Source of the DNA: a virus
Taxonomy: Duplodnaviria > Heunggongvirae > Uroviricota > Caudoviricetes
DNA: 35,486 nucleotides
Strand: one strand, 5' to 3'
IMG/VR virus record: IMGVR_UViG_2724679238_000015
Span: 1 to 35,486 of that record
The translations under genes and the position numbers were made by a program. The notes beneath the pieces were generated by a model that worked only from the letters and a program-made list of their open reading frames with translations, made no database searches and was not told the DNA's origin. Positions 10,211 through 35,432 of the stretch are shown piece after piece. Position 1 is the first letter of the stretch, and every line of letters begins with the position of its first letter.

Positions 10211-10218
10211 ATGAGCAA

Positions 10219-19764: not shown

Positions 19765-20342
19765 ACGCAGAACTTATGAGACTGCTGAGCAATATCATCC
19801 GCACCGGGATCATCTCTGAAGTTGATGAGAAATCCTGGTGCGTGCGGGTCCTCAGCGGCGGACTGGAAACAGGCTGGTTGCGCTGGAACACCACGCGCGC
19901 GGGAGCCTTCAACGTGTGGCTGCCGCCATCAGTGGGCGAACAGGTGGCAATTGCCTGCATCGGCGGCAACCCGGAAACAGCCATGATAATTGGCAGCCTG
20001 TGGAGCGATGACATTCCGGCCCCCGGAAAAAACCTGAAAGAAATCGTGGTCAGCGCGCCGGATGGCGCGGTGTTCTGCTACGACGCGGACGCAGGCGCAC
20101 TGAGCGCCAGCGGCATGAAAACGGCCACCCTGCAGGCATCCGTCAGCGTGAAACTGGACACACCTGTCGTGGAGTGCACAAACCTTCTGAAAACAGCCGA
20201 GATTGACGTCACAAAAGGGGGAAAGATGAGCGGCAATATCACGCACAGCGGCGGCAATTTCACCTCAAACGGCATCACTGTGCATACGCATAAACACGGT
20301 GGCGTTAAAGGTGGCAGCGATTCGACAGGAGGACCGCAGTGA
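19761..20342 (+). CDS. V: baseplate spike protein (P2 gpV homolog)
   Basis: 193 aa. C-terminal GNITHSGGNFTSNGITVHTHKHGG matches the gpV spike signature. Confidence 0.85.
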   Translation: MNAELMRLLSNIIRTGIISEVDEKSWCVRVLSGGLETGWLRWNTTRAGAFNVWLPPSVGEQVAIACIGGNPETAMIIGSLWSDDIPAPGKNLKEIVVSAPDGAVFCYDADAGALSASGMKTATLQASVSVKLDTPVVECTNLLKTAEIDVTKGGKMSGNITHSGGNFTSNGITVHTHKHGGVKGGSDSTGGPQ

Positions 20343-20689
20343 CAACCCGCTACACAGGAATGAACCCGGACGGGACGGGAAACCTGAACGATATGGAGCA
20401 CCTGAAACAGTCAGTCAGGGACATCCTGACCACCCCGCTGGCCAGCCGGGTTATGCGACGGGAATATGGCAGTCTTGTCCCTGATTTGATTGACGAACCC
20501 ATGAATAACACTACGCGTCTGCAATGCATGAGCGCTGCTGTGATTGCACTGACACGATGGGAGCCACGCATTGCCCTGAACGCCATTGATGTTGTCTGGA
20601 AGGCGGGAGGCCGCGCCGGGGTGACACTATCAGGTACTGTCATTCAGACCATGCAGAATGTTGAATTAACCATCACGCTGAGGGAGTAA
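20339..20689 (+). CDS. W: baseplate wedge protein, gpW/gp25 family
   Basis: 116 aa; position and GPW/gp25-like pattern. Confidence 0.8.
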   Translation: MTTRYTGMNPDGTGNLNDMEHLKQSVRDILTTPLASRVMRREYGSLVPDLIDEPMNNTTRLQCMSAAVIALTRWEPRIALNAIDVVWKAGGRAGVTLSGTVIQTMQNVELTITLRE

Positions 20690-20692
20690 ATC

Positions 20693-21589
20693 ATGCCTGC
20701 CGTTGACCTTTCACAGTTACCGGAACCCGCCATCATCGCGGAGCCTGATTTTGAGGCAATTCTGGCTGACACAAAGGCCAGGATGATTGCGGCTTATCCC
20801 GCCGAACAGCGCGAAGCAGTCTCCGCCGCACTGGAGCTGGAATCGGAACCCCTGAACGTTATCGCCCAGACAACAGCGTTTCGTGAAATGCTGTTACGCC
20901 AGCGGGTCAACGAGGGCGCACGCGCCTGCATGTTAAGCCACAGCGCCGGGACAGACCTGGACAACCTCGCGGGTAATATGAACACAAAGCGCCTGGTTAT
21001 CACTCCGGCAACGGATACCACCGACGCGGTGATGGAAAGCGACACCTCACTGAGACTGCGGGCGCAGCGGGCGTACGACGGGCTGAGCGTTGCTGGCCCG
21101 TCAGGTGCATACGAGTATTTTGCCCGCAGTGCCAGCGGTCTGGTGCGTGATGCGCGGGCTATCAGTCCGTCTCCGGCAAATGTGACGGTTTCCATCCTGT
21201 CCACTGAAGGTGACGGCACAGCAACGGAGGCATTGCTCAATACCGTTCGCACTGCTCTGAACGCGGAGGACACCCGCCCGGTGGCCGACCGCCTGACCGT
21301 ACAGAGCGCCAGAATCGTGACATGGCGGCTGAATGCAAAACTGTACTTTTACCCCGGCCCGGAATCCGAACCTATTCTGGCCGCGGCGGAATCGTCATTC
21401 AGGAAGTGGCTGGCTGAACAGGGGCTTATCGGTCAGGACGTGGCGTTGTCCGCCATTGCTGCCGCACTTCATGTGCACGGCGTGCAACGCGTGGAGATAA
21501 TCGAACCCACCCAGAATCTGGCCATCAGCGACATACAGGCGGCGCGCTGTGAGTCATTTACCATCAGCGAAGGTGGGCGCAATGAGTAA
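20693..21589 (+). CDS. J: baseplate assembly protein (P2 gpJ homolog)
   Basis: 298 aa; follows W as in P2. Confidence 0.8.
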   Translation: MPAVDLSQLPEPAIIAEPDFEAILADTKARMIAAYPAEQREAVSAALELESEPLNVIAQTTAFREMLLRQRVNEGARACMLSHSAGTDLDNLAGNMNTKRLVITPATDTTDAVMESDTSLRLRAQRAYDGLSVAGPSGAYEYFARSASGLVRDARAISPSPANVTVSILSTEGDGTATEALLNTVRTALNAEDTRPVADRLTVQSARIVTWRLNAKLYFYPGPESEPILAAAESSFRKWLAEQGLIGQDVALSAIAAALHVHGVQRVEIIEPTQNLAISDIQAARCESFTISEGGRNE

Positions 21590-22112
21590 TTCACTGTTAC
21601 CGCCATCAGCCAGCAGTTTCATGCGTTGTGCCGAAGCTGTCGGAACGCGCATTACAGACATCCCGGTAGACCTCAACACGCTGTGGTCGCCGGACACCTG
21701 CCCGGTGCATCTGCTGCCTTATCTCGCCTGGGCGTTTTCCGTTGACCGCTGGGACCGCAACTGGCCGGAGGAAACAAAGCGCCAGGTGATTCGCGATGCG
21801 TGGCTGATACACCGACACAAGGGGACCATCAGCGCACTGCGCCGGGCCATTGAGCCGCTGGGATACCTCATTCGCGTGTCTGAGTGGTGGGAGTTCGGCG
21901 GAGAGCCGGGAACATTTACCGTTGAAGTCGGCACGCTGGACAGCGGTGTGACGGAGGAAATGTATCTGGAAATGGAGCGGTTGATTGCTGATGCCCGCCC
22001 GATCAGCCGCCACATGACAGGGCTGAATATCATTCAGGAAATCCCGGGGGATATTTTCGCAGCGGCGGCAACTTATGACGGTGAAGTTATTACCATTTAT
22101 CCAGGCGATTAA
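21582..22112 (+). CDS. I: baseplate/tail protein (P2 gpI homolog)
   Basis: ATG at 21582 overlapping the J stop; about 176 aa; position between J and H. Confidence 0.75.
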   Translation: MSNSLLPPSASSFMRCAEAVGTRITDIPVDLNTLWSPDTCPVHLLPYLAWAFSVDRWDRNWPEETKRQVIRDAWLIHRHKGTISALRRAIEPLGYLIRVSEWWEFGGEPGTFTVEVGTLDSGVTEEMYLEMERLIADARPISRHMTGLNIIQEIPGDIFAAAATYDGEVITIYPGD

Positions 22113-22114
22113 GC

Positions 22115-24343
22115 ATGAGCACCACAACACGAAAATTTAAAACCGTTATCACCGATACGGGTGCAAAAAAATTAGCACAGGCAGCCGCACCAGATGGCAA
22201 ACCCGTCCGCCTGACACATATGGCCGTGGGTGACGGCGGCGGTACTTTACCCACGCCAGACAGTAAGCAGACCCGTCTCGTGCATGAGGTGTGGCGACAT
22301 ACCGTTAATCGCGTCTTCCTGGACGCAACACATCAGAACCGCATTATTGCGGAGCTGGTTATTCCTCCAGAAACGGGCGGATTCTGGATCCGGGAAATTG
22401 GTGTGTTTGATGAGCACGGCGATTTAATCGCGGTGGGCAATACTGCCGAAAGTTACAAGCCAACCGTTGCCGAAGGGTCCGGGCGTGCGCAAACATTTCG
22501 CACCATCCTGACCGTATCCAGCACGGCCACCGTGGCGCTTACCGTGGATAACACCATGGTGATGGCCACAGTGGATTACGTGGATGACAAACTAAAAGAG
22601 CATGAACAGTCACGACGTCACCCGGATGCCTCGCTGACCGCAAAAGGCTTTACTCAGTTAAGCAGTGCGACCAACAGCACGTCTGAAGCACTGGCCGCAA
22701 CACCGAAAGCGGTAAAGGCTGCATATGACCTTGCTAGCAGGAAATATACCGCACAGGATGCCACCACAGAGCAAAAAGGCCTTGTCCAGCTCAGTAGCGC
22801 CACTAACAGCGTGTCTGAAACGATGGCGGCAACGCCGAAAGCGGTAAAGGCCGCCTATGACCTTGCTAACGGGAAATATACTGCACAGGACGCCACCACA
22901 GCGCGAAAAGGCCTTGTCCAGCTCAGTAGTGCAACCAACAGCCCGTCTGAAACGCTGGCTGCGACGCCAAAAGCTGTTAAGACGGTAATGGATGAAACGA
23001 ACAAGAAAGCGCCGCTGTCGAGTCCGGCACTCACCGGAACGCCAACCGCACCAACTGCGCCAAAGGGTACTAACAATACTCAGATAGCAAACACGGCGTT
23101 CGTTATGGCCGCGATTGCCGCACTTGTAGACTCATCACCTGACGCACTGAATACGCTGAACGAGCTGGCTGCGGCACTGGGCAATGACCCGAACTTTGCG
23201 ACTACTATGACCAACGCGCTTGCGGGCAAGCAGCCGAAAGACGCCACCCTGACGGCGCTGGCCGGGCTTGCTACTGCGGCAGACAGGTTTCCGTATTTTA
23301 CGGGGAATGACACTGCCAGCCTGGCAACTCTGACAAAAGTCGGGCGGGATATTCTGGCTCAAGCGACCGTTTCCGCCGTTATCGAATACCTCGGTTTGCA
23401 GGAAACGGTAAATCAGGCCGCTGGCGCATTGCAGAAAAACCAGAACGGCGCAGATATTCCAAACAAAGATAAATTTACGCAAACAATAGGTGCTTGCCGC
23501 TCTTTTCATAGCTCTATCAGCACAGGAGCAGGGAACTGGACAACGGCACAATTTATCGAATGGCTGGAATCTCAGTGGGCTTTCAATCATCCATACTGGC
23601 TGTGTAAATGCTCATGGTCATACGGCAATAATAAAATTATTACTGACACCGGATGTGGACTTATTCACCTTGCGGGTTGCGTTATTGAAGTTATGGGCAA
23701 TAAAGGCGCCATGACCATTCGTATAACCACACCGAGTACCTCTAGCGGTGGTGGCACCACTAATGCACAATTTATATATATTAACCACGGTTCAGAGTAT
23801 TTACCTGGCTGGCGACGTGACTACAACACGAAAAATCAGCAGGCCGCTTTTGCTTTAGGGATAACAGGAAGCACTGTCGGAAATGATAAAGCTGTTGGCT
23901 GGAACTGGAATAGCGGGGTATATAACGCAAATATTGGTGGCGCATCGACATTAATCCTCCACTTCAATATGAACGCGGGTAGCTGCCCTGCTGTACAGTT
24001 CCGCGTAAATTATAAGAACGGTGGGATTTATTATCGTTCAGCGCGTGATGGTTATGGCTTCGAGGCTGACTGGTCAGAGTTTTACACCACAACCAGAAAA
24101 CCTTCAGCAGCAGATGTTGGGGCATATACTAAAGCGGAATGTAATTCACGATTTATTACAGGTATTCGATTAGGTACAAAATCATCAGCGCAAACATGGA
24201 ATGGTCCTGGCTGGGGCGATAAATCTGGTTACGTTGTTACAGGTTCCGTTAACTCAAACAAAGATGAACTTATTGATACAACACAGGCAAGGCCAGTGCA
24301 ATATTGTATCAATGGCACCTGGTATAATGCGGGAAGTATTTAA
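22115..24343 (+). CDS. H: tail fibre protein (P2 gpH homolog) with phage tail-fibre repeats; C-terminal part lies inside an invertible segment
   Basis: 742 aa. Three tandem copies of the motif QLSSATNS.SE.(L/M)AATPKAVK. The C-terminal region after LGLQETV is the exchangeable receptor-binding part. Confidence 0.85.
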   Translation: MSTTTRKFKTVITDTGAKKLAQAAAPDGKPVRLTHMAVGDGGGTLPTPDSKQTRLVHEVWRHTVNRVFLDATHQNRIIAELVIPPETGGFWIREIGVFDEHGDLIAVGNTAESYKPTVAEGSGRAQTFRTILTVSSTATVALTVDNTMVMATVDYVDDKLKEHEQSRRHPDASLTAKGFTQLSSATNSTSEALAATPKAVKAAYDLASRKYTAQDATTEQKGLVQLSSATNSVSETMAATPKAVKAAYDLANGKYTAQDATTARKGLVQLSSATNSPSETLAATPKAVKTVMDETNKKAPLSSPALTGTPTAPTAPKGTNNTQIANTAFVMAAIAALVDSSPDALNTLNELAAALGNDPNFATTMTNALAGKQPKDATLTALAGLATAADRFPYFTGNDTASLATLTKVGRDILAQATVSAVIEYLGLQETVNQAAGALQKNQNGADIPNKDKFTQTIGACRSFHSSISTGAGNWTTAQFIEWLESQWAFNHPYWLCKCSWSYGNNKIITDTGCGLIHLAGCVIEVMGNKGAMTIRITTPSTSSGGGTTNAQFIYINHGSEYLPGWRRDYNTKNQQAAFALGITGSTVGNDKAVGWNWNSGVYNANIGGASTLILHFNMNAGSCPAVQFRVNYKNGGIYYRSARDGYGFEADWSEFYTTTRKPSAADVGAYTKAECNSRFITGIRLGTKSSAQTWNGPGWGDKSGYVVTGSVNSNKDELIDTTQARPVQYCINGTWYNAGSI
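22643..23000 (+). repeat. tandem 132-bp repeats (about 2.7 copies) inside the tail fibre gene
   Basis: Unit starts at 22643, 22775 and 22907 (AAAGGC...), each encoding a 44-aa repeat ending ...ATPKAVKAAYDLA. Confidence 0.6.
23379..23406. repeat. left crossover site of the invertible segment (gix/hix-like)
   Basis: TTATCGAATACCTCGGTTTGCAGGAAAC; 25 of 28 positions match the reverse complement of 26255..26282. Confidence 0.65.
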
Positions 24344-24345
24344 TT

Positions 24346-24879
24346 ATGATGCATTTAAAAAATATTAAAGCAGGAAACCCCAAAACCGTAGAACAATATG
24401 AATTAACACGACAATTTGGCGTTGTCTGGTTGTATTCTGATGACGGTAGAAACTGGTATGAGGAACAGAAAAACTTTCAGGAAGATACAATAAAAATTGC
24501 TTACACTGCCGATGGAATCATTGTGGCTGTAGATAAGGATGTATCGACAATTAATCCTGAAGGTTTAAGCGTTGTTGAGGTTCCTGATATTACAGCCAAT
24601 AGGCGGGTCGATATTTCTGGTAACTGGATGTTCAAAGATGGCGCAGTGATAAAGCGGGAATATACCGAAGAAGAACAGAGACAACAGGCGGAAAATGAGA
24701 AGCAAAACCTGTTACAACTCGTCAGAGATAAAACTCAGCTATGGGATTCTCAGCTACGACTTGGAATTATTTCTGCTGAGAATAAACAAAAATTGACCGA
24801 GTGGCTGCTCTACGCGCAGAAAGTAGAGTCTACGGATACCTCCGTCCTGCCAGTCACGTTCCCCGAACAACCAGAATGA
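24346..24879 (+). CDS. G: tail fibre assembly chaperone (P2 gpG homolog)
   Basis: 177 aa immediately after H. Confidence 0.8.
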   Translation: MMHLKNIKAGNPKTVEQYELTRQFGVVWLYSDDGRNWYEEQKNFQEDTIKIAYTADGIIVAVDKDVSTINPEGLSVVEVPDITANRRVDISGNWMFKDGAVIKREYTEEEQRQQAENEKQNLLQLVRDKTQLWDSQLRLGIISAENKQKLTEWLLYAQKVESTDTSVLPVTFPEQPE

Positions 24880-24882
24880 GAG

Positions 24883-24908
24883 AAGGCCCGTTCGGGCCTT
24901 ATTTTTTA
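24883..24908. terminator. bidirectional hairpin terminator between the convergent tfa and tfa' genes
   Basis: AAGGCCCG / CGGGCCTT stem followed by ATTTTTTATT on the plus strand and an A-rich run on the other side. Confidence 0.55.
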
Positions 24909-25319
24909 TTCAGGCTTTTGTGGCCATTCTGGATTTGCCGTATCCACGCGGCTGAGCAGAACGCTGTAACGCTCCCACGACTCCAGCATTTCTCGCTCAG
25001 CATCAGTAGCCATCCCCAGTTTTACGGCTCGCTCCAGTGGTAATATAAAAGATTCCGCTTCCGCCAGAAGTTTAGATTTTTGCCTCTCTGCTTGTCCTGT
25101 TAACTCTTCCTGAGTTGGCGGCTCTGGCTCTGTCACTACTGGCTGACCATATTCATTGATATTGATGGTTTTTCCTTCTGACTGCTTTTGCAAAAGATAG
25201 TTATACCATCGCTCTGATATTTCAGTAAGGTCTTCTGGCCATGAGTCATTATTCTGGTAGTCGTTTTTTAATTTATCGTCGTAAAAACCTTTCGTTGATG
25301 GGCTGTAATAAATCGTCAT
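24906..25319 (-). CDS. alternative tail fibre assembly chaperone (tfa')
   Basis: 137 aa ending ...NPEWPQKPE; convergent with G inside the invertible segment. Confidence 0.7.
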
Positions 25320-25320
25320 A

Positions 25321-26282
25321 TTAGTAACCTATAGCTGTCCAGTACATATTGCCATTACCTTCGCTGTTAAATTTCGCCCCGGTTCTGGATAGTGAGTTAA
25401 CAGCAATACTGTAGTCAAATCGCCCGTGTGCGTTAGTGATTGTTATGCTGGCACAGGCGGATGGAAAAGCCACCGGAAATGTTAATCCCGCTCCAGCGTT
25501 AGAAATATATCCCCACTGTGTAATAACTCCCGTAGAGGCATCTTTATGCCAGCCATTCGCCGCTTTGGACGCGGTATTTTTAGCCTGATAACGGGAATCA
25601 AAATTACCGTAATTAGATGGTATAACCTGACCAGTGACTCTGAGCGCATCAGACTTCAAAAACATCAGGTCTTTTGTTGTGCTTCCAGCCCTGATACGCC
25701 ATTTGAAATATTCATTGCCATTATCACCAGTTTCAAACCACAGGTATGAGTCAGTATCGGAATCTGAATCATTTTTAAATCCGATTTTCGCCCAGTCGGT
25801 GTTTCTTTCCCAAATCAGGAAGGAATCATTTATAAATTTAATACTCCCTGACATGCTACCGCCAGCTAATGCCAATACTGCGAGCTCTGCCGGGGTCGGT
25901 TTGCTTTGTGAATTATATTCTCGTGCCCACGGGGTCCATGGTTCTGATGAATATTTGCTACGTGACCACACTCTTGAGGAGTTATACACATGATAAATTT
26001 GTTTTACGCCAGCATTTTTTAACACAATTAAATTTCCGGCGTTATTCTCCGGGTAGTTTAATGCAGAGCTTGTATTAGCGTTAAGCGACTGATGGTACAG
26101 ACCAGGAGTCATATAATCATTTAAGTTTTGATTAGCACCAATAGAAATGCTCTGCCCATTAAAAATATCCTGTGAAGTAACATTTATATCACTGGTTAAC
26201 GCACGCCCGTTTACTTTGCGTGTTGCTGGCACCGCCCCTGCCGCTAACTCTACTGTTTCCTGTAAACCGAGGTTTTTGATAA
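25321..26282 (-). CDS. alternative tail fibre C-terminal cassette, start-less; would fuse to the H N-terminus after inversion
   Basis: Minus-strand reading frame continues through the right crossover site and encodes [14 protein letters not shown], matching YLGLQETVNQAAGA at the left site in H. No independent start is expected. Confidence 0.65.
26255..26282. repeat. right crossover site of the invertible segment
   Basis: Reverse complement reads TTATCAAAAACCTCGGTTTACAGGAAAC. Confidence 0.65.
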
Positions 26283-26312
26283 TGGTCGTTTCTGGCCCAC
26301 ATGGCATGATTT

Positions 26313-26936
26313 GTGCTTTTGAGCGGGAGATTCAACGTGCTGATTGGCTATGTACGCGTGTCAACAAATGACCAGAACACGGATTTGCAACGCAATGCGC
26401 TCAATAGCGCAGGATGTGAACTGATTTTTGAAGATAAAATCAGCGGAACAAAATCAGCCAGACCGGGATTGAAAAAACTGCTCAGAACGCTGTCAGAAGG
26501 CGATACGCTGGTTGTCTGGAAACTGGACAGGCTGGGCAGAAGCATGAAACACCTGATCACACTGATTGAGGAATTACGGGAAAAAGGTGTCAATTTTCGT
26601 AGTCTGACGGATTCAATTGATACCAGTACACCAATGGGGCGCTTTTTCTTCCACGTGATGGGCGCCCTGGCTGAAATGGAACGTGAATTAATTGTTGAGC
26701 GAACACTGGCCGGACTGGCAGCAGCACGCGCACAGGGGCGCATTGGTGGGCGTCGCCCGAAACTGACAAAAGAGCAACATGAGCAAATAGCAAGGCTGAT
26801 TAAAAACGGCCATGACAGAAAACAACTGGCCATAATTTACGGTATTGGTATATCGACGATTTATCGTTACCACCCCGCGGGAGAATCAACCGGAACAACA
26901 GAGAAGACCAGAGGAAACAAAAAACCGCTAATCTGA
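26313..26936 (+). CDS. serine recombinase DNA invertase (Gin/Hin/Cin/Pin family)
   Basis: LIGYVRVSTNDQNTDLQRNAL...GDTLVVWKLDRLGRS...MGRFFFHVMGALAEMERELIVERTLAGLAAARAQGRIGGRRP...AIIYGIGISTIYRY is the family signature (catalytic Ser in YVRVST). The conserved N-terminus corresponds to a GTG at 26337 in the same frame. Confidence 0.9.
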   Translation: MLLSGRFNVLIGYVRVSTNDQNTDLQRNALNSAGCELIFEDKISGTKSARPGLKKLLRTLSEGDTLVVWKLDRLGRSMKHLITLIEELREKGVNFRSLTDSIDTSTPMGRFFFHVMGALAEMERELIVERTLAGLAAARAQGRIGGRRPKLTKEQHEQIARLIKNGHDRKQLAIIYGIGISTIYRYHPAGESTGTTEKTRGNKKPLI

Positions 26937-26950
26937 TCATTAGCGGTTTT
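26921..26950. terminator. bidirectional terminator shared by the invertase gene and the convergent tail operon
   Basis: AAAA, stem CCGCTAAT / ATTAGCGG, TTTT. The invertase stop codon lies in the loop and the U stop is 12 bp away. Confidence 0.55.
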
Positions 26951-26958
26951 GCATTAAA

Positions 26959-27453
26959 TCAGAACAACCCTTTAACTGAACTGGTCGCGCTGTTAAGGGA
27001 TGCTGTCACCTTATCTTTAAGGCCGGACAGCATATCGCTGAACGATGAGGATTGCAGGCGTTCCCGCAAATCCTCATCACAGCGTTCAAGGGTCAGGGAA
27101 AACTCTATCTTTTTCGCTTTCCCGTAGCGATCCAGTTCAGAGCGGGTCGTGCTCGTTTCGGTCAGAACATACATGCCGTAAATCTGCCCGACGCCATCAA
27201 TCAGAGGCCACGGGCGTCCCGCATACGCCTGCGTGGTCAGCAGCGACAGCGACACTTCGCCGCCTGTAATCTCAGGATAAAGCACGCCAGAAAGAACGAT
27301 GCGATCATCACCTGCACCGATATACTGCCAGCTTGCTGAACGGTTAACGCGCTCGTTTTTCACATGTCGCCAGCTTTTGTTTTGCTGTAACTGCTGATGC
27401 GGCAACGTGCGCAGCTCAAAAACAAACATGCCGTAGATCATCATCATGGCCAT
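26959..27453 (-). CDS. U: tail protein (P2 gpU homolog)
   Basis: 164 aa, directly downstream of the tape measure gene on the minus strand. Confidence 0.8.
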   Translation of the reverse strand: MAMMMIYGMFVFELRTLPHQQLQQNKSWRHVKNERVNRSASWQYIGAGDDRIVLSGVLYPEITGGEVSLSLLTTQAYAGRPWPLIDGVGQIYGMYVLTETSTTRSELDRYGKAKKIEFSLTLERCDEDLRERLQSSSFSDMLSGLKDKVTASLNSATSSVKGLF

Positions 27454-27459
27454 GACTCC

Positions 27460-30297
27460 TCAATCTTTATCGTAAAAACTGCCACGCCCGGCACGGGTAC
27501 GCCGCTCCAGTTCTGCCCTGACCATTTCGCCGACCAGTTTCGCCAGTTCGCGGGGATTCTGCGTAACAACGTTATGCAGATGGACATGAATTTCACCACC
27601 AAATCCGGGGGTCGCAGCCTCCCGGCTGCGGGAAGATGCGGAAACGGGCGCAACTGGCGCACGTGCGGCCTCCACGACCGGACGGGAGCTTGCTGCAACA
27701 ACAGGGGGCAGCGCCGGAGATAACGGAGCCGGGGGCGCGGGAGTGATATTGATTGCAGGAAGAGCCTTGTTGCTCTGCGCAACCTTTCGCTCCTGCCACT
27801 CCCCACGAACAGCAAGCGCACGGGGCAAATTCTTAAAGACAATATCACCGGGGCCGATACGCTTTTTCGTCTCATCAACCAGCTTGCCTGTGTTATCTGC
27901 AATTTTGCTGAGCCTGCGCAGCGTGCCAGTGTTGTTGTCCGTGAGCGGCTTGTTGTCTTTAGGCTTATCGCCTCCGGTCCCTGTTTCCGCAGACTTCGGT
28001 GGATTGATTTTTGCCAGGTCCCCCTGAAGCAAAGCAACCTTGTCCTGAAGAATGGCCGCACGCTGCGCGTCTTCGATTTTCTTTCTCGCCCTTTCCGCTT
28101 CATCTGGAAGGACACCAAGTTTTTCCAGTATCCATGCCAGCGTATCCAGCAGCATTTTTGCAGGCGTCAGGACAAGCTGTAACGCACCGCCAAGAACGTT
28201 GCCGAATACCTCGCCAGCACTGGTGCATTTATCCAGCGTTTCCTTGCTGGATTCCATCGGTGACAGCAGCGATGTAAACCAGTTAAAGACCTGAATCACG
28301 CCATCACGAACCAGTTCGAAAACAGGGCCAAACCGTTCAAAGGTTTCGCGTAACGGGGCCAGCCGCTCCATAATCCCGCTGAACACCCCGGCAAAAAATG
28401 CCCTGATTGGGTCCCAGTATTTCCAGATGAGAACGGCAGCTCCGGCAAGCGCAGCTACGATAAGACCGACCGGGCTGAACAACGCCCCGATAGCGCCTCC
28501 CAGTAAAGAGACGGAACCCTCCACCATTCCCCACAGCGCTGGTAGGACCCTGACAGCATTCATTGATCCGGTCAGGAGGGAAAAACCAAGACGCAGTTTT
28601 GCCAGCGGGCCAGCAAGCACCCCAAGAGCCAGTGACAACGAGCCAACCGTTGCAGTCATTGCCAGCAGCGCACCGCCTGCAATCAGTAGCTGGCGCGTCA
28701 ATGCCGGATGGGCCTGCGCCAGCTCCGTCACCTTTGAGACCACCCGAGTGAGCCACTGCGTGACAGAGCGCAGCGGACCGTCAATCAGATCCGCAATGCG
28801 GATACGCAGCCCCTCCCATGCACTGCCGAGTGATTTCAGGTCGCCATCAAGGTTATTGGCCATAACCTTTGCCGTGCGTTCAGCCTCACCGCGTGCGCCT
28901 TCAAGTTCTTTTCTCAGTTTGGGCAGAGAACCGTCACCTGCCGCATCAACGAGGGCCATAAATGACGTGAAGGCCTCTTCTCCGGCTATGTCCTTAAAGA
29001 ACGATACCCGGTCAACTTCCCCGTATTTGCGGGTGGCTTTATAAAGGTCGGCCAGCACATCCTCCATCGGGCGCATTTTGCCGTTCGCATCAGAGACAGC
29101 CACACCAAGCTCTTTCAGCGCCTCTGCTGCCGCCTTTGGCGGTGATGCCAGACGAGCAAGGCTGGCACGCATTGCTGTCCCGGCATCACTCCCTCTGATA
29201 CCCATATTCGCCAGCACGCCCGCCATCGCTGCGGCCTGCTCCAGCGATATTCCCAGCTTACCCGCCACCGGACCTGCATATTTCATGGTTTCGCCCAGCG
29301 CGCGAAGGTCGGTGTTAGTACGGGTAAACGCCGCAGTAAGTGTGTCGCCGACCCGGTCCATCTGGTCAGCAGAGAGGCCGAACTGCGTCAGGATATTTGA
29401 GCCAATATCAGCCGTCTCGCCAAGGTCCATACCGCCAGCCGTTGCCATGCTCAGCACGCCGGGAAGCGCAGCCTGAATGGCTTCTGGTGTGAAGCCAGCC
29501 ATAGCAAGAAATGCCTGCCCACTGGCGGCATCACTCGCAGTAAACTGCGTTTCAGAGCCGAGCTTTAGCGCCTGCTCACGCAGCGCCTTAAACTGCGGGC
29601 TGTTCTGGTCAATTCGCGTCAGCGCCTGCACACGGGACATCTCTTTCCCGAATCCGATAGCGGGCTGCAAAAAACGCCCGGCAGCATAGCCGCCAGCCGC
29701 TGCCGCACCAGTTGCCAGCGCACCACCTGTTTTCAGTTTTCCCGCAGTTTCCTGCGCGCGTGAATACCGCTCACGCGCCCGCGTTACACGCGCAAGCGCC
29801 TGTCGTTCGCGTTCAAGCTGGTTGTTGTACTGTTCGGTGCGTCTGATGGCCTGCTGGATGGTGTTATCGCTGCCTGTCAGGGAAATACCGTGGCGTTTAA
29901 GCTCTCCGCCAAGCTCCCGCATTTTCTGAATTTCCCGCGTACGCGATTCATTCAGGCGTTCAAGCCGGGTGCTTAACTGCTGCATCAGCCTTTGTTGTTT
30001 TTCGCTGAGCACAGTACCCGTGCGTTGTAACTGATGAAGGGCGTTAAGCTGGCGTCGTGCTTTCACGATGCCAGCATCCGCTTTACTGACAGCATCGCGG
30101 GCGCGCTCAAATGAACGCGCCTGACGCTCGAGATTTTTGATCGCCCCCTGCGTTCGCTGGATGGAGTCACCAAACTGTCCCATCAGGCGGCGGGCGTTTT
30201 CGGCTGGCCGGGTCAGCCTGTCAACAGCACTGAAGGCGACCCGAATGTCAAGAGTCTTCATCGTCTGCATTCCCACTGCGAAGTGCCGCCCGCTCAC
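27460..30297 (-). CDS. T: tail tape measure protein (P2 gpT homolog)
   Basis: 945 aa, Ala/Gly-rich with long helical segments; position between E/E' and U. True start may be an internal Met. Confidence 0.85.
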   Translation of the reverse strand: MSGRHFAVGMQTMKTLDIRVAFSAVDRLTRPAENARRLMGQFGDSIQRTQGAIKNLERQARSFERARDAVSKADAGIVKARRQLNALHQLQRTGTVLSEKQQRLMQQLSTRLERLNESRTREIQKMRELGGELKRHGISLTGSDNTIQQAIRRTEQYNNQLERERQALARVTRARERYSRAQETAGKLKTGGALATGAAAAGGYAAGRFLQPAIGFGKEMSRVQALTRIDQNSPQFKALREQALKLGSETQFTASDAASGQAFLAMAGFTPEAIQAALPGVLSMATAGGMDLGETADIGSNILTQFGLSADQMDRVGDTLTAAFTRTNTDLRALGETMKYAGPVAGKLGISLEQAAAMAGVLANMGIRGSDAGTAMRASLARLASPPKAAAEALKELGVAVSDANGKMRPMEDVLADLYKATRKYGEVDRVSFFKDIAGEEAFTSFMALVDAAGDGSLPKLRKELEGARGEAERTAKVMANNLDGDLKSLGSAWEGLRIRIADLIDGPLRSVTQWLTRVVSKVTELAQAHPALTRQLLIAGGALLAMTATVGSLSLALGVLAGPLAKLRLGFSLLTGSMNAVRVLPALWGMVEGSVSLLGGAIGALFSPVGLIVAALAGAAVLIWKYWDPIRAFFAGVFSGIMERLAPLRETFERFGPVFELVRDGVIQVFNWFTSLLSPMESSKETLDKCTSAGEVFGNVLGGALQLVLTPAKMLLDTLAWILEKLGVLPDEAERARKKIEDAQRAAILQDKVALLQGDLAKINPPKSAETGTGGDKPKDNKPLTDNNTGTLRRLSKIADNTGKLVDETKKRIGPGDIVFKNLPRALAVRGEWQERKVAQSNKALPAINITPAPPAPLSPALPPVVAASSRPVVEAARAPVAPVSASSRSREAATPGFGGEIHVHLHNVVTQNPRELAKLVGEMVRAELERRTRAGRGSFYDKD

Positions 30298-30780
30298 GCC
30301 AGCTAACCACTTCGCCGGGCGTCATCATGAAGATTTCGGCGGGCGACCAGTTAAAAATAACGGCAATATCTGCCACAAAGTCTTCTATGTGCTCAAAGCA
30401 CACAACCGTGATCAGGCTTCCGTCGCCTGTTCGTTCTTCCCGCCAGAGTCCGCACCGCTCAAAAAATTTACGGCAACCACACATAACTGAATAAAGTCAC
30501 GGGATGCCATTTTTTTGATCGTCACTTCATCCAGTCGCGGTGATGTCACGCGTGACAACAGCGTAAACATGGATTCCGCTTTCAGATTCAGCACATCAGA
30601 CAGCGACAGACCACGCAGGGATCCAGCCTGCTCAATAGCCCCGGTGATCTCCACATACGTGATTTTTTCGTCGCCTCGCTCAATTGGCAGGGTAAGTTTT
30701 ACGCCGCGCTCGCTGGTTTCTTTCGCAGTATCAGCAACCACCACAGCGTTTTCAGTATCGGTATTTTTCGTCTCTTTCAT
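30248..30780 (-). CDS. E+E' frameshift product: E extended by a programmed -1 ribosomal frameshift
   Basis: Slippery heptamer UUUUUUG on the mRNA (plus-strand CAAAAAA at 30460..30466) near the end of E; the -1 frame stays open to 30248. Confidence 0.55.
30412..30780 (-). CDS. E: tail assembly chaperone (P2 gpE homolog)
   Basis: 122 aa upstream of T. Confidence 0.75.
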   Translation of the reverse strand: MKETKNTDTENAVVVADTAKETSERGVKLTLPIERGDEKITYVEITGAIEQAGSLRGLSLSDVLNLKAESMFTLLSRVTSPRLDEVTIKKMASRDFIQLCVVAVNFLSGADSGGKNEQATEA

Positions 30781-30834
30781 CAGAAAACTCCTTTCAGTCA
30801 GAGGCGACGCACTGCGCCGCCTGCATATTACTTA

Positions 30835-31347
30835 TCAGCCGAGCCCGAGCGCGGAGCGGATGCGGTCGGGTACAATGTCCTTGCCATCCTTCCGGTAGAT
30901 GTGGTTCACCAGGTCAATTTCCCACACCGGACGATCGTTAATACTCAGCTTGTAGTAGGTGTTTTTGACAGCGTAAGTGTGTGACGTGGCTTCGCCCTGT
31001 TTGGCCTCCCCCATATCAATTTCCGTCACACGCCCGCGCATCTCGATTTCATACAGGTCGCTTTCTGCATCGGTGTAGTATTCACCCGCAAAACGCAGCA
31101 GCGTGCCGTCCATTGTTCCGCCATATTTAAGGAACAGCGCACGAACGGCGCCACCCATGACAAAACTCGCATCAAGCGCGGAATCGTCCAGGCCGAGGTC
31201 GATACTCACCGCTCCCAGCATGCCACCACCACGATAGCTGTCGGTTTTACGCGTCAGTTTAGGCGGGGTGACAGACGTCACCTTACCCACTTCATTTTCA
31301 CCATCCACAAACAGCGTAAAAAAACGAAGATGTTTTGGTACGGCCAT
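30835..31347 (-). CDS. FII: tail tube protein (P2 gpFII homolog)
   Basis: 170 aa immediately downstream of the sheath gene. Confidence 0.85.
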   Translation of the reverse strand: MAVPKHLRFFTLFVDGENEVGKVTSVTPPKLTRKTDSYRGGGMLGAVSIDLGLDDSALDASFVMGGAVRALFLKYGGTMDGTLLRFAGEYYTDAESDLYEIEMRGRVTEIDMGEAKQGEATSHTYAVKNTYYKLSINDRPVWEIDLVNHIYRKDGKDIVPDRIRSALGLG

Positions 31348-32531
31348 TAAGCACCTCCAAGCACTGCAAATGCAGGACCAAAGAACTCATCAGTGAACGC
31401 CTGGTAAAGCTCCATATCTTCCAGCGGAGGAACGGGCGTATATTTATAGCGAATACGCACGCGCCCCTGTCGTAATTCTGTGGTGCTGTTATCCACGATG
31501 TCATACCAGCACGATGCGCCAATCAGTTTCCCGGCAGTAACCAGCGAATCCAGTTTTGCCCTGATGGCACTGATGACGTCCTTCACGTTCGCGGGCGTCA
31601 GTGGACTGTCGATGGTTTCAAACTGCGCTTCCGCAATTGAATCAGCCAGCACCTGTGCGGTTCGGGTATACACCTCAAAGATGTAGGCATTCGTTTCCGG
31701 TGTGCGGTTGCCCCAGAAGCGGAACCCGTTGCGGCGAATGATGGTTGTGATTTCTTTGTTGTTGAGGCTGTTGGCATCGCTGTCAGCAGCCTGCAACGAC
31801 CAGAACACATGCCTGGACATCCCCAGCACATTTTTGACCGGAACGTTGGACAGCGATTTGTGCCAGCCCTGCTCATGGTCAATGTACGCACGAAGGCCGC
31901 ACGCATAGGCTGGCGCGGGGAAAACCTCATTCTCGCCACTTTTCGGGTTGTAAGCGATGAAGTCCGGCCACAGGAGCATCAGCTCGCGTTCGTTGAATTT
32001 TTCACGGTATGCAATGGCTTCAGCCATCGTGTTACAGCCATGACAGGAGGCATACACAAACGCGCGCAGTTTACCTGCAATCACGCACAGGGATTTTGTC
32101 ACCGCCTCCGTGTCCAGCCCCGGCGCGGCCAGAATACGCGGACGGTATCCGATGCTTTCATCCTGCTCTGCAACAAGCAGCGCATACATCCCCGTATAGC
32201 TGCCGTCGGATTCAGAACCACCGATAACCAGTTGATCCTGTGTTTTTCCGTCTTCTTCTTTGTGTTCAGCCACGCGAACGACGATCACCTTTGTGCTCAC
32301 CTGGTCTGCAATGGGTTTCAGCGCACGGTACAGCGTCCCCGTTGTCCCGCATTTTCCCAGCACGTCATTGACGCGGGTCACTAATGCAGGCTTGTTCAGC
32401 GGGAACAGCTTCGCGTCCGCATCGTCCGCCGTTGCCACGATACCGATAACGCTGGAATCAACGTCGTTAATTGCTGTTACCAGGTCGGTACTTTCCGTAA
32501 CGCGGGCGCCATGAAAGCGAGTTTCACTCAT
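31347..32531 (-). CDS. FI: tail sheath protein (P2 gpFI homolog)
   Basis: Start at the Met of MSETRFHGARVTE (AAGGGG RBS), giving about 395 aa. LRAYIDHEQGWHKSLSNV and FRFWGNRT blocks match P2 FI. The ORF-track frame extends upstream to 32666. Confidence 0.85.
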   Translation of the reverse strand: MSETRFHGARVTESTDLVTAINDVDSSVIGIVATADDADAKLFPLNKPALVTRVNDVLGKCGTTGTLYRALKPIADQVSTKVIVVRVAEHKEEDGKTQDQLVIGGSESDGSYTGMYALLVAEQDESIGYRPRILAAPGLDTEAVTKSLCVIAGKLRAFVYASCHGCNTMAEAIAYREKFNERELMLLWPDFIAYNPKSGENEVFPAPAYACGLRAYIDHEQGWHKSLSNVPVKNVLGMSRHVFWSLQAADSDANSLNNKEITTIIRRNGFRFWGNRTPETNAYIFEVYTRTAQVLADSIAEAQFETIDSPLTPANVKDVISAIRAKLDSLVTAGKLIGASCWYDIVDNSTTELRQGRVRIRYKYTPVPPLEDMELYQAFTDEFFGPAFAVLGGA

Positions 32532-32686
32532 AGTTAGCCCCTTGTATCCGTTAAATGATTCGGCAACAATCATCACCCACCACGCGCGTAATCTCATCCC
32601 TGCGCCGTTCTTGCCGCCCGGCGACAACAAAAAGCAGTAACCCCGCCCGCACACACATGCGACCATGCTGCACAGGGAGGGAGCCG

Positions 32687-33787
32687 ATGATTGACACCAC
32701 CATGCAACTGTTCAACCAGAGTACTGACCCCGTGAAGATGCCTGATTTTGATATTCTCGCGGAGGGGAAAACGCTGTCCGGTGTGGCAGAACGCCTGATG
32801 AGCCTGTCACTGACCGACAACCGGGGATTTGAAGCAGACCAGCTCACCATCACGCTGGATGATGCTGATGGTCAGTTGCAGTTGCCGCCACGGGGCGCTC
32901 GCCTGACGGTTCTCATTGGCTGGAAAGGCGAACCGCTGACAGAAAAAGGCACTTACATTGTTGATGAAATTGCTCATGAAGGACCGCCCGACAGACTGAC
33001 CATTTCAGCCAGAAGCGCAGATTTTCGGGATGAATTTAACGTCAAGCGCGAAGTATCCTGGCATGATGTAACCGTTGAACGCGTGGTGTCTGCAATTGCT
33101 CACCGATACGGCCTGAAACCGCAAATCAGCGAAATGCTGATGGATATTGAAATCGACCACGCTGACCAGACCGAAGAAAGCGACATGTCCTTCCTTACAC
33201 GCATGGCGGAAATGCTGGGCGCAATCACCACGGTAAAAAGCGGTAATCTGTTATTCATCATGCCAGGTGGTGGCGTGAACGCGCAGGGAAAACCATTGCC
33301 ATCGTTTGCCATCACACGCAGCAGCGGCGATCGCCATCAGTTTCGCATTGCTGACCGCGAGGCGTATACAGGTGTACGCGCCTACTGGCTTGATCTTAAT
33401 TACGGGAAAAAGAAAAAAGTCAGCGTGAAACGCCGCAAACCGAAAAAGGAGAAAAGCAGCAGCCGGGAAGGCGACTATATGGCAGGCGCGGAAGGCAACG
33501 TGTTTGTGTTACGCAAGACTTATCAGAACGAGCAGGCAGCAAGACGCGCAGCGGCGGCAAAGTGGCAGCAGCTACAACGCGGAGCCGCATCATTCTCCAT
33601 CACGCTGGCACGTGGTCGCGCTGAACTCTACCCCGAAATGCATGGCACGGTGGCAGGCTTTAAAAGCGACATCGACAATCAGGACTGGATTATTGCAAAA
33701 GTTGAGCATTCTATTGATAACAGTGGTTTTACCACACAGCTTGAGCTTGAAGCAAAAATCCCGGAATGGATAGCAGAAACAGAGTGA
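32687..33787 (+). CDS. D: tail protein D (P2 gpD homolog)
   Basis: ATG at 32687 with GGGAGGG RBS; about 366 aa. Transcribed divergently from the FI-U block. Confidence 0.8.
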   Translation: MIDTTMQLFNQSTDPVKMPDFDILAEGKTLSGVAERLMSLSLTDNRGFEADQLTITLDDADGQLQLPPRGARLTVLIGWKGEPLTEKGTYIVDEIAHEGPPDRLTISARSADFRDEFNVKREVSWHDVTVERVVSAIAHRYGLKPQISEMLMDIEIDHADQTEESDMSFLTRMAEMLGAITTVKSGNLLFIMPGGGVNAQGKPLPSFAITRSSGDRHQFRIADREAYTGVRAYWLDLNYGKKKKVSVKRRKPKKEKSSSREGDYMAGAEGNVFVLRKTYQNEQAARRAAAAKWQQLQRGAASFSITLARGRAELYPEMHGTVAGFKSDIDNQDWIIAKVEHSIDNSGFTTQLELEAKIPEWIAETE

Positions 33788-33828: not shown

Positions 33829-34089
33829 ATGTTCCGTTGTCCGCTTTGTGGCGCATCTGCCCGTATCCGCACCAGTCGTTCGGAAAATGATTCAGATACC
33901 GTACGGAAAAAATATTACCAGTGTAACAACCTGGAATGCGGCGTATGCTTCTCAACACTGGAGGCTTTCCATAAATTCACATCGAAACACGCCCCCGGCG
34001 TTCACTCTTCAGAGGGCATCCCGTGGAATGAGCTACCAGCTTCACACAGGGGAAACAACCAGATGAGTTTGCCCTTACCTCAGAATTAA
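33829..34089 (+). CDS. ogr: late gene transcription activator, zinc-finger Ogr/Delta family
   Basis: MFRCPLCGASARIRTSR...YYQCNNLECGVCFSTLEAF matches P2 Ogr (MFHCPLCQHAAHARTSR...YHQCQNVNCSATF) with the four-Cys zinc finger. Confidence 0.85.
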   Translation: MFRCPLCGASARIRTSRSENDSDTVRKKYYQCNNLECGVCFSTLEAFHKFTSKHAPGVHSSEGIPWNELPASHRGNNQMSLPLPQN

Positions 34090-34149: not shown

Positions 34150-34362
34150 ATGGCTGGAGGGAATACCCGAAGGCCAGATGTGGAAAGGCCCCGGAAAACA
34201 TTTCTGTTTAACCGAGGCCCTGACCATCTAACCTTAGCAAGTGATAGGTTAGCGCCTCCCCAAAAAAGGAGCAAGCGCTATGTCGCAAAAATCGCTTATG
34301 GCCATCACGTTCTGCGTGACGGTAATCCTCATCATCTGGATGCTGCACGGTTCGCTGTGTGA
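34150..34362 (+). CDS. mok-like overlapping reading frame of the hok locus (tentative)
   Basis: 70-aa ORF in another frame overlapping the hok start, as mok does in hok/sok loci. Called by position only. Confidence 0.3.
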   Translation: MAGGNTRRPDVERPRKTFLFNRGPDHLTLASDRLAPPQKRSKRYVAKIAYGHHVLRDGNPHHLDAARFAV

Positions 34363-34420
34363 AATACGGATGAGCTTCTGGGGAGCGGAGTTTGCGGCGT
34401 TCTTACAGTGTAAGCAGTAA
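34280..34420 (+). CDS. hok: Hok/Gef-family small membrane toxin (type I toxin-antitoxin)
   Basis: 46 aa: MSQKSLMAITFCVTVILIIWMLHGSLCEIRMSFWGAEFAAFLQCKQ. N-terminal TM followed by the SLCEIR...E.AAF signature of the Hok/Gef family. Followed by a GC-rich fold-back hairpin. Confidence 0.65.
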   Translation: MSQKSLMAITFCVTVILIIWMLHGSLCEIRMSFWGAEFAAFLQCKQ

Positions 34421-34508
34421 GGAAACCGCGACGGGGGAGCAATCCCCCGTCAATCGGTTGCTAAGGCTGGCCGAAGTGGCACCCTATCCCATGGACACAA
34501 ACAAGAAA

Positions 34509-34540
34509 ACCCGCAGCGTAAAAACTGCGGGTTTTCTTTT
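34509..34540. terminator. bidirectional rho-independent terminator
   Basis: ACCCGCAG / CTGCGGGT stem flanked by AAGAAAA upstream and TTTTCTTTT downstream. Lies between the convergent hok locus and the minus-strand gene at 34612. Confidence 0.55.
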
Positions 34541-34611
34541 GGAGCTCTCACTTAGCTAAGGTACCGTTAACAACACACATAATGCTCGCAAAACAAACCA
34601 GTTAAAAGTGA

Positions 34612-34893
34612 TTACTCAGCATTCTCCTGCTTCCATTGCCGGATCATTTCATCCGTAACATCACTCTCATAACATACCACGTCATACCCTCCAGTACGGC
34701 TATATGCACTGCGTCTACCACATCTACTACCATTCCTTGCATGATTATAAGGACACGCACAATTGCCTGGATACGATTCAATGGATTCTTTAATTATTTC
34801 TTTCTTGATCTGAGCATCAGACTTTCCTGTTGCTGCATACCCACTAAAAGATACCAAACAAAAACAGATTGCCATTAATAAACCACATCGCAT
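34612..34893 (-). CDS. small secreted cysteine-containing protein of unknown function
   Basis: ORF-track frame extends to 35007; the internal Met at 34893 gives a signal peptide (MRCGLLMAICFCLVSFSGYA) and an ~73-aa mature part with four Cys. Confidence 0.45.
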   Translation of the reverse strand: MRCGLLMAICFCLVSFSGYAATGKSDAQIKKEIIKESIESYPGNCACPYNHARNGSRCGRRSAYSRTGGYDVVCYESDVTDEMIRQWKQENAE

Positions 34894-35140
34894 ACCGATA
34901 CACTCTATTACTAACCAATCATAACCCACATCATAAAATCGAGATGTGGAGTACAACACCTTTAACAAGAAGGTGTCATAACGATAATATGCCGTGCAAT
35001 TCATCAAAAAAAAGATCTATATCAAAGAGATAGAGCTCTTATCAGTGCTGCAGACATCGGCATTCGAGGCAGCAGAAAAACAGTAAATCTGACGAATTTG
35101 CCTTTTCTCAGGATGTTATCAGATTAAAAAAGACAGATTA

Positions 35141-35330
35141 GCGCAGGTACCTTTTGGTGGATGGCAGGAGGAAAAATGAAGTCGAGTGGAAAAATCCCAG
35201 AAAAATTTTTGTTTAACCGAGGTCCTAGTTCACTATGCGAAATACGGAGGAGCTGCAGGAGAATTCGGCTTCATCCTTAGAGTTTAAACAGCACGTGCAC
35301 TACTATTGTTTCTGCATATCGCCACACCAT
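35141..35330 (+). pseudogene. truncated hok-locus remnant: leader plus 3' end of hok, lacking the hok start and TM region
   Basis: 35150..35225 aligns to the leader at 34150..34225 (shared TGTTTAACCGAGG.CCT); the following sequence aligns to the hok 3' end (GAAATACGGA.GAGCT). About 140 bp with the start codon and TM is missing. Confidence 0.4.
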
Positions 35331-35364
35331 CGCCACTCCACCGCCATTGCACAAAATACAAATA

Positions 35365-35390
35365 CAAAAAAACCACCCGAAGGTGGTTTC
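35365..35390 (-). terminator. rho-independent terminator downstream of the tRNA gene
   Basis: ACCACC / GGTGGT stem with CGAA loop; on the minus strand it is followed by a T7 run, about 45 nt beyond the tRNA 3' end. Confidence 0.6.
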
Positions 35391-35432
35391 ACGACACTGC
35401 TTATTGCTTTGATTTTATTCTTATCTTCCCCA

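Follow-up and report, generated by a model that had tools for sequence, protein, structure and literature searches.

We suggest that the tail-fibre operon of a P88-like prophage carries a two-site inversion switch of the Gin type, a reading to which we give a probability of roughly 93%. The window (the whole stretch of DNA analysed here, 35,486 nucleotides long) holds all the elements of a Mu G-segment-type system, as the original prediction had it, and both orientations of the segment occur among close relatives, the breakpoints lying inside the inverted repeats. The segment is a functional and ordinary copy of the flip-switch known from Mu and P1, and the finding as such is already known: existing annotations of relatives include two fibre genes and a DNA invertase. 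A literature search on accession CP034162 found nothing.

The element is a Xuanwuvirus (P88-like, P2-related Peduoviridae) prophage of E. coli. Its first 12 kb are 97% identical to phage 520873 over 91%, and 92–95% identical to P88, 503458 and Shae_phiSM; it is collinear with all four of these phages, including ParM and the reversed FI-U operon, with the same order of genes around the cassette. With genes for head, tail, lysis, replication and an integrase in place, the prophage seems to be complete. ARAGORN returned no tRNA in the window, and the right end of the window falls inside a gene annotated in E. coli as tRNA-Leu. In P2, H, G and fun(Z) are located on the minus strand and FI...U, D and ogr all on the plus strand, whereas here the tail operon of FI, FII, E, T and U (26959-32531) is encoded on the minus strand and converges with H-G, with D/ogr on the plus strand. 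The invertase gene therefore adjoins the 3' end of U and not FI. The cassette had been predicted to fill the slot that in P2 holds Z/fun, and it does follow G as expected, but with the tail operon reversed its neighbour is a different one from that in P2. Reversal of FI-U is a trait of the Xuanwuvirus lineage, present too in relatives devoid of the invertase; this, together with the lack of further gix sites in the window, rules out a second invertase-driven inversion as its source.

The segment is bracketed by 28-bp repeats in inverted orientation, TTATCGAATACCTCGGTTTGCAGGAAAC on the left (23379-23406) and TTATCAAAAACCTCGGTTTACAGGAAAC on the right (reverse complement of 26255-26282), identical at 25 of 28 bases. 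This pair, whose positions and degree of match are those originally predicted, was ranked top in the repeat search and stretches to 57 nt at lower identity. Analytically, the chance expectation for 28-mers matching at 25 or more of 28 positions is 2e-5 in the 6-kb region and 8e-4 in the whole window. Each repeat contains a 26-bp gix-like site of imperfect dyad symmetry (Table 1; the reference gix sites were read from the phage Mu record), and the two sites are inverted with respect to each other and share an identical centre (TC/GA), as sites of Gin/Cin/Pin/Hin invertases require. The longest perfect run common to both is 10 nt (ACCTCGGTTT), followed by one of 8 nt, in the window as well as in relatives 99.8–100% identical to it. 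The heptapeptide LGLQETV is encoded in frame at both crossover sites, as residues 425-431 of H and at the 5' end of the minus-strand ORF 25321-26307, so the ORF translations agree with the prediction on this point as well. No third gix-like site was found on either strand of the whole window using the Mu gix and hix 26-mers with up to 7 of 26 mismatches. A multiple-inversion system, such as Min of p15B, a shufflon or the three-repeat locus of an EPEC P2-like prophage, needs more than two sites and is therefore ruled out.

Table 1. Features of the invertible tail-fibre locus (coordinates are positions in the window)
Feature	Position	Strand	Basis and remarks
H, constant N-terminal part, residues 1 to ~421	22115..23378	+	Pfam Phage_tail_fib and Phage_fiber_2; collar domain and three 132-bp fibre repeats
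Left gix-like site, 26 bp	23379..23404	+	Central dinucleotide TC at 23391-23392; 3 mismatches to gix of the Mu record
Sv, variable fibre C-terminus, joined to H in the window orientation	23405..24343	+	Pfam gp37_C; Mu S'-type tip
G, assembly chaperone for Sv, 177 aa	24346..24879	+	Pfam Caudo_TAP, E 1.5e-34
GC-rich hairpin between the convergent chaperone genes	24883..24900		Terminator scan and sequence; T-run next to it on the plus strand
G', alternative chaperone, 137 aa	24906..25319	-	Pfam Caudo_TAP, E 7.7e-30; silent in the window orientation
Sv', alternative fibre C-terminus	25321..26256 (end approximate)	-	Pfam Gp53-like_C; unfused to H and silent here
Right gix-like site, 26 bp	26257..26282	-	Central dinucleotide at 26269-26270; 1 mismatch to Mu gix
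Serine DNA invertase, Gin/Cin/Pin/Hin group, 199 aa	26337..26936 (probable start)	+	Pfam Resolvase and HTH_7
Enhancer-homologous stretch in the invertase gene, nt 19-90	26355..26426	+	Homology to the recombinational enhancer annotated in P1 cin

As in the Mu G segment, a constant fibre part outside the segment can be fused in frame to either of two alternative C-termini, and each tip is followed by its own chaperone, with the two cassettes convergent. The constant part of H, with tandem repeats at 22642-23037, is collinear with all relatives regardless of segment orientation. In the window orientation the H-Sv fibre is 742 aa long and reads through LGLQETV. In-silico inversion at the central TC produces an in-frame alternative fibre of 741 aa, again through LGLQETV, with the start of G' located 2 nt past its stop codon; gene calls in flipped relatives (L143, L149 and L151) include this same 741-aa fibre. 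Together with the Pfam matches, this bears out the prediction of two fibre C-termini on opposite strands, each with a chaperone. The tips carry different C-terminal domains. Sv is 83% identical at the amino acid level to the C-terminal part of Mu S', and its region is ~80% identical at the nucleotide level to the Mu, D108 and P1 segments, while G is 81% identical (aa) to Mu U'. Sv' has no S' match in Mu, where its best hit is a partial alignment to S (53% over 139 residues), and no full-length match to it was found among isolated phages; this tip may possibly recognise an uncharacterised receptor. NCBIfam gave zero matches to the fibres and chaperones. Whichever orientation is present, the silent cassette forms an ORF with an ATG of its own, in the window the 328-aa minus-strand ORF that holds Sv' (26307-25321, ATG at 26307). 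Only one strand provides a good T-run at the hairpin that separates the chaperone genes; judging by its sequence, this hairpin is probably the terminator of the fibre operon.

Beyond the right repeat lies the predicted serine invertase, now backed by Resolvase (E 2e-51) and HTH_7 (E 3e-13) matches. Its ORF extends from 26313 to 26936, but the true start is most probably the GTG at 26337, since the resulting 199-aa protein shares its N-terminus with Gin and Cin and its length with the gene calls of relatives. The protein is 72.5% identical to Gin and 74% to Cin; its N-terminal sequence (VLIGYVRVSTNDQNTDLQRNAL) is identical to that of Gin, as is the N-terminal active-site segment YVRVSTNDQ, and its best matches among solved structures are those of Gin (4M6F and 3UJ3; residues 1-182, E 8e-90). 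A resolvase catalytic domain, a serine nucleophile in YVRVST, a C-terminal helix-turn-helix and a length of ~190–200 aa, by which we defined the Gin/Cin/Pin/Hin group, are all present; NCBIfam yielded no specific family for the invertase, with all matches under the curated cut-off. The distance of 67 bp from the site centre to the invertase start is identical in Mu. Near the 5' end of the gene, where Gin and Cin systems have a Fis-dependent enhancer in cis, and as far from the site as in Mu, 58 of 72 bases (81%) are identical to the annotated P1 enhancer, compared with 67% for the gene as a whole. Because the protein is at its most conserved here too, conservation of this stretch is no independent evidence of an enhancer. 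Fis sites in enhancers of this kind are 48 bp apart. Candidate G-N13-C 15-mers occur at gene positions 22 and 71, at a spacing of 49 bp, and are not conserved in cin; we do not claim them as Fis sites.

The main evidence that the segment inverts comes from natural copies. An exact-protein look-up of the invertase and IMG/VR were used to find flipped copies. Ten public contigs encode an identical invertase, six with the segment in the window orientation and four with it flipped. Two of the six (L145 and L150) match the window at 100% identity, and the flipped copies are 99.8–99.9% identical to it; in L143 and L151, both flipped, the left flank is 99.9% and the segment 99.8% identical. That copies identical at 99.8–100% exist in both orientations means that inversion happened very recently. 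The segment is also flipped in an IMG/VR relative (L005), and of two isolated phages, 503458 has its homologous segment in one orientation and Shae_phiSM in the other. The breakpoints of all four flipped contigs fall within 23379-23410 and 26251-26285, where the two sites form exact reciprocal hybrids, the outer half remaining at the flank while the inner half travels with the segment. The crossover is thus confined to the 10 nt of ACCTCGGTTT around the central TC. On this comparative evidence, the segment inverts by exchange at the site centre. A search of 5,426 complete E. coli genomes with the in-silico junction between the constant part of H and Sv' returned no place covering at least 80% of the query, compared with 21 places for the native junction; an H fusion of this Sv' allele is simply absent from the collection.

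These observations bear on two other explanations. The locus could be a frozen relic, in which repeats and invertase were inherited from a Mu/P1-like ancestor, recombination was lost and the second cassette is dead cargo. The left site is indeed three bases away from Mu gix, most relatives in the phage lineage lack the invertase cassette, and two of them (L006 and L007) hold a fixed Sv'-G' tip with no invertase. A relic is nonetheless highly improbable given near-identical copies in both orientations with reciprocal hybrid sites, five ORFs that are all intact, a silent cassette conserved at 99.8% among copies and an invertase with the same catalytic motifs as Gin. Alternatively, RecA-dependent homologous recombination between the repeats might flip the segment, the invertase being incidental. 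Inverted repeats of any kind can in principle recombine, and in three relatives (L142, L147 and L148) the repeat reaches ~60–90 nt further at 85–92% identity. Efficient RecA recombination, however, needs roughly 20–30 bp, far more than the longest identical run in the window and its closest relatives; further to that, the crossover maps exactly to the core that holds the gix central dinucleotide, and the locus follows the Gin system in its sites, its spacing and its enzyme. We therefore regard a RecA-driven flip as scarcely credible.

In the inversion switch that we propose, the invertase would pair the two gix-like sites, probably assisted by host Fis bound to an enhancer in the 5' end of the invertase gene. 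Both sites would then be cut at the central TC and the strands rotated, flipping the 2.9-kb segment. The promoter, the start and the first ~430 codons of H lie outside the segment, so that each orientation fuses the shaft in frame to one tip and sets the matching chaperone directly 3' of it, giving the virion one of two unrelated receptor-binding parts: a Mu S'/U'-type tip on the 742-aa fibre in the window orientation and a Gp53-like_C tip on the 741-aa fibre in the flipped one. We infer that the catalyst is this invertase, rather than a host Pin-type enzyme acting in trans, and Fis is likely to be required for inversion. The dissimilarity of the tip sequences suggests that the two forms differ in host range. 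With two orientations and two fibre tips, virions of two kinds, each with its own host range, are therefore to be expected from a lysogen population.

A further possibility is that the main selected role lies in the lysogen, with the invertase acting in trans on invertible Pin-type loci of the host, or with inversion yielding fibre-derived proteins that block the adsorption of other phages; the silent 328-aa ORF, for instance, could supply a free fibre-tip protein that masks the receptor and excludes phages. Pin-type invertases do cross-act on each other's sites, the silent cassette has its own ATG, and there is a precedent in PinQ-driven inversion of e14, which creates the adsorption-blocking chimera StfE2 (PMC12529663). 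Against this, the prophage appears complete, and a scan upstream of the silent ORF revealed no promoter-like site. Both lysogen roles seem rather unlikely to us, and either would supplement the host-range switch and not supplant it. As the fibre and both chaperones are intact, host-range switching of the virion is the simplest reading.

As a means of bet-hedging on host range by a phage, the switch is of the textbook kind, and it has little significance past correct annotation. Annotators should regard a "second tail fibre protein" encoded on the opposite strand as the silent half of a switch, and in host-range engineering with P88-like phages or fibres, lysates of mixed specificity should be expected. 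The Mu/P1 fibre-switch module moves as a cassette among unrelated backbones, including P2-like prophages, Mu, P1 and a RepA phage-plasmid.

The locus is most similar to the Mu G segment with Gin, in which a constant part, a site, Sv with its chaperone, a convergent chaperone with Sv', a second site and an invertase transcribed away from the segment follow in the same order. Its sites match gix at all but 1 and 3 of their 26 bases, the 67-bp spacing is shared, and the invertase (72.5%) and Sv and G (83% and 81% to S' and U') are close to their Mu counterparts. Mu is a transposable phage, whereas the backbone here is that of a P2-related myovirus. The constant fibre part is of the P2 H type and contains Phage_fiber_2 repeats, Sv' differs from Mu S in being a mosaic that ends in Gp53-like_C, G' is short (137 aa) and the invertase has a C-terminal tail ~17 aa longer than that of Gin. 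The C segment of P1/P7 with Cin is similar in its invertase (74%), in nt 19-90 of the invertase gene (81% to the P1 enhancer) and in parts of Sv and G (~79% at the nucleotide level), but cin lies on the other side of the segment relative to the constant part of S, and the cix sites of P1 are further diverged from the sites described here than Mu gix. Phages 503458 and Shae_phiSM share the order I, H, G, G', Sv', invertase, followed by U-T-E-FII-FI on the opposite strand, with flanks 88–97% identical, whereas the named isolates have a tip pair unlike that in the window. Invertible fibre segments of P2-like prophages and tailocins are also represented by Fels-2 fin, prophages of EPEC E2348/69 and carotovoricin Er; inversion has been demonstrated by sequencing and PCR in the EPEC P2-like prophages (PMC4272514) and inferred for Fels-2 fin (PMC7953296). 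One of the EPEC prophages has a locus with three repeats and four variants (PMC4272514), in contrast to the two sites of the present switch. The P segment of e14 with Pin, and PinQ/PinR, share the invertase family and an inversion that fuses alternative fibre C-termini (PMC4272514, PMC12529663); e14, however, is a defective element, whereas the switch described here resides in an apparently complete prophage.

We conclude that inversion of the fibre segment is well supported on comparative evidence, namely the presence of both orientations among close relatives, and that it would yield an alternative fibre read in frame. As originally predicted, open reading frame and Pfam searches place pairs of fibre tip and chaperone on opposite strands, Sv and G as the continuation of the fibre gene H and the silent alternatives Sv' and G' facing them, with an invertase beyond the right repeat. 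The inverted repeats likewise lie where they had been predicted, at 23379-23406 (TTATCGAATACCTCGGTTTGCAGGAAAC) and 26255-26282 (TTATCAAAAACCTCGGTTTACAGGAAAC as the reverse complement), with 25 of 28 positions identical, and in the reading frame of the fibre each site is translated as LGLQETV.

Features of the fibre cassette and of the neighbouring tail genes
Feature	Position	Strand	Description
H	22115-24343	+	742 aa; Pfam Phage_tail_fib, three Phage_fiber_2 repeats, gp37_C
H tandem repeats	22642-23037	+	three 132-bp units encoding Phage_fiber_2
G	24346-24879	+	Pfam Caudo_TAP
GC-rich hairpin	24883-24900		between convergent chaperone genes G and G'
G'	24906-25319	-	Pfam Caudo_TAP; 137 aa
Silent ORF including Sv'	25321-26307	-	328 aa; Gp53-like_C at end
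Invertase ORF	26313-26936	+	Pfam Resolvase and HTH_7
Tail operon FI, FII, E, T, U	26959-32531	-	
D	~32690-33787	+	
ogr-like zinc-finger ORF	33829-34089	+	

This pair was the top inverted repeat in a search of 22000-28000, where it reaches 57 nt at lower identity; the chance expectation for a match of at least 25/28 is ~2e-5 in the 6-kb region and 8e-4 in the whole window. Both gix sites in the phage Mu record read TTATCCAAAACCTCGGTTTACAGGAA, from which the right site differs by one base and the left by three, and all share the central TC. No further gix-like site was found at ≤7/26 mismatches in the whole 35.5-kb window, and the switch is therefore a simple two-site one. Recombinant products can be told apart because the left and right sites carry different bases at positions 6 and 9, in the outer halves, at position 20, in the inner half, and immediately past the inner end.

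An exact-protein look-up with the invertase returned ten contigs, which were aligned to the window by blastn: six carry the segment oriented as in the window (native) and four the opposite way (flipped), thus bearing out, at sequence level, the expectation that both orientations exist. Among the native contigs, L145 and L150 are 100% identical to the window over 20337-32936 and 23263-32936, respectively, L144 is 99.99% identical and L146 99.5%. The flipped contigs L143 and L151 match at 99.9% in the left flank and 99.8% in the segment, and L149 at 98.8% and 99.8%. L148 (native) and L147 (flipped) form a second such pair at ~97% identity, with a variant Sv' allele. This variant, also present in L142, has an N-terminal part copying that of Sv, leaves window positions 25613-26251 unmatched and adds ~60-90 nt to the inverted repeat at 85-92% identity; the silent ORF of L148 is 370 aa. 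The IMG/VR relative L005 (94-98% identical) is flipped as well, and the homologous segments of the isolated phages 503458 and Shae_phiSM lie in opposite orientations.

In the flipped copies, the overlap at the blastn breakpoints is confined to 23379-23410 and 26251-26285. Their left site reads TTATCGAATACCTCGGTTTACAGGAA and continues with ACAG, and their right site, read as the reverse complement, is TTATCAAAAACCTCGGTTTGCAGGAA and continues with ACGG. Each is an exact hybrid of the two sites of the window, reciprocal to the other, which places the exchange within ACCTCGGTTT, 10 nt holding the central TC. RecA recombination between the repeats could also have produced flipped copies, but is unlikely given that these 10 nt are the longest perfect identity between the sites. 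It is also improbable that the flipped copies are assembly artefacts, since the "k111" names of the metagenome contigs suggest a k-mer much longer than the repeats, and reads must therefore have crossed the junctions.

Site-specific inversion by the adjacent enzyme agrees with the features of the invertase gene. Its start is most probably GTG 26337, with GGGAG upstream, giving a protein of 199 aa, a length in agreement with gene calls in relatives; the N-terminus, VLIGYVRVSTNDQNTDLQRNAL, is identical to that of Gin. The protein shares 72.5% identity with Gin and 74% with Cin, and its closest solved structures are those of Gin (4M6F and 3UJ3, E 8e-90, residues 1-182). The distance from site centre to invertase start, 67 bp, is exactly that of Mu. 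The annotated recombinational enhancer stretch of P1 cin is identical at 58/72 positions to nt 19-90 of the invertase gene (26355-26426), against 67% for the whole gene, and the protein is most conserved over the same stretch. No Fis sites could be convincingly defined, so that a recombinational enhancer in the 5' part of the gene is putative. The tail operon probably terminates at a hairpin (26921-26950) with a 12-bp stem and a minus-strand T-run, which overlaps the final codons of the invertase gene where this gene and U converge.

When 23391-26270 was inverted in silico, cutting at the central dinucleotide, H continued across the hybrid site and on into the ORF of the minus strand to give a 741-aa fibre, with the 137-aa G' beginning 2 nt past its stop. 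Each orientation would therefore yield a complete pair of fibre and chaperone. In the window, H is fused to a tip of the Mu G(-) type: Sv shares 83% identity with the C-terminal portion of Mu S', and G shares 81% with Mu U'. Sv' is a mosaic of an N-terminal stretch of ~100 residues resembling the fibres of phages Chuche and STYP1 (70% identity), a middle part (residues 102-215) resembling P2 H (82%) and a terminal Gp53-like_C domain; among isolated phages it has no full-length match. Two loci, L006 and L007, carry Sv' (98% identical) and G' (90%) joined to a related fibre shaft; no matches to Sv, G or the invertase were found in the L006/L007 DNA examined. In L142, H is 654 aa and the alignment to the window breaks in the repeat region (~22717-22902; L142 2441-2519), so fibre shaft length varies by repeat number.

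The window represents a prophage of the P88-like genus Xuanwuvirus (family Peduoviridae). Escherichia phage 520873 is 97% identical to it over 91% of the first 12 kb, and P88, 503458 and Shae_phiSM are 92-95% identical. An integrase lies at the left end, and the right end matches the E. coli chromosome beside a tRNA-Leu gene at 99.8% identity. The chromosome that matches the right flank (34200-35486) carries a Hok/Gef gene, and the window stops inside the tRNA-Leu gene, which is probably where the phage attaches. Beside the integrase, two small minus-strand ORFs (1008-2035), one a DUF2511 protein and one of 216 aa with no significant family match, may be cargo genes. A plasmid-type partition pair, ParM (StbA_N and ParM C-terminal domain, E 7e-82) and a Plasmid_stab_B protein, is encoded at 7924-9201 inside this integrase-bearing P2-like prophage; ParM is also annotated in the P88, 520873 and Shae_phiSM records.

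The cassette had been assigned to the slot between G and the tail genes that holds Z/fun in P2. This holds only approximately: the cassette does follow G, but its other neighbour is the 3' end of U, owing to the strand of the tail operon. In P2, the minus strand encodes H, G and fun(Z) and the plus strand FI...U, D and ogr, whereas here FI-FII-E-T-U is reversed and separated from D/ogr, converging on the fibre operon and diverging from D. The convergent layout is common among Enterobacterales gpU relatives, with an invertase beside U in ~9 of ~50 loci and in none of the rest; the cassette is therefore an accessory insert where two operons converge. Xuanwuvirus phages and many invertase-less Enterobacterales prophages share this layout, which therefore characterises the lineage and did not arise through the switch. 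A gpU 95% identical to that of the window, flanked by enterobacterial P2-like fibre genes, occurs in NZ_JBQPOM010000071.1, a contig of 226 kb whose label, Vagococcus sp., is that of a Gram-positive genus; that assembly is probably contaminated or mislabelled.

All defining features of a Gin/Cin/Pin-type fibre switch that were tested are present, and judged from sequence the cassette is an invertible segment of this type, predicted function and family membership coinciding. This supports the reading first proposed; a Fis-dependent enhancer, catalysis by this invertase and a difference in host range between the two orientations are predicted. The type of system is already known. GenBank relatives carry an annotated "DNA invertase" between two fibre/chaperone pairs, and a predicted DNA invertase is among the genes given in the PhiSM paper (PMC6456863). 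Inversion of a fibre segment was shown by sequencing and PCR in P2-like prophages of EPEC E2348/69 (PMC4272514) and inferred in Fels-2, with the pin homologue fin (PMC7953296), both papers citing the case of carotovoricin Er. Two fibre/chaperone cassettes and a separate recombinase also lie at 7345-12226 of pCREC-544_3 (NZ_CP024829.1), a circular plasmid of E. coli (32 kb) that encodes RepA, ParB and a complete complement of phage head and tail proteins. Its junction between constant and variable fibre parts is 96% identical to that of the window; the switch module thus also occurs on an unrelated phage-plasmid backbone. By analogy with PinQ and StfE2 in e14 (PMC12529663), such cassettes might act in the lysogen too.
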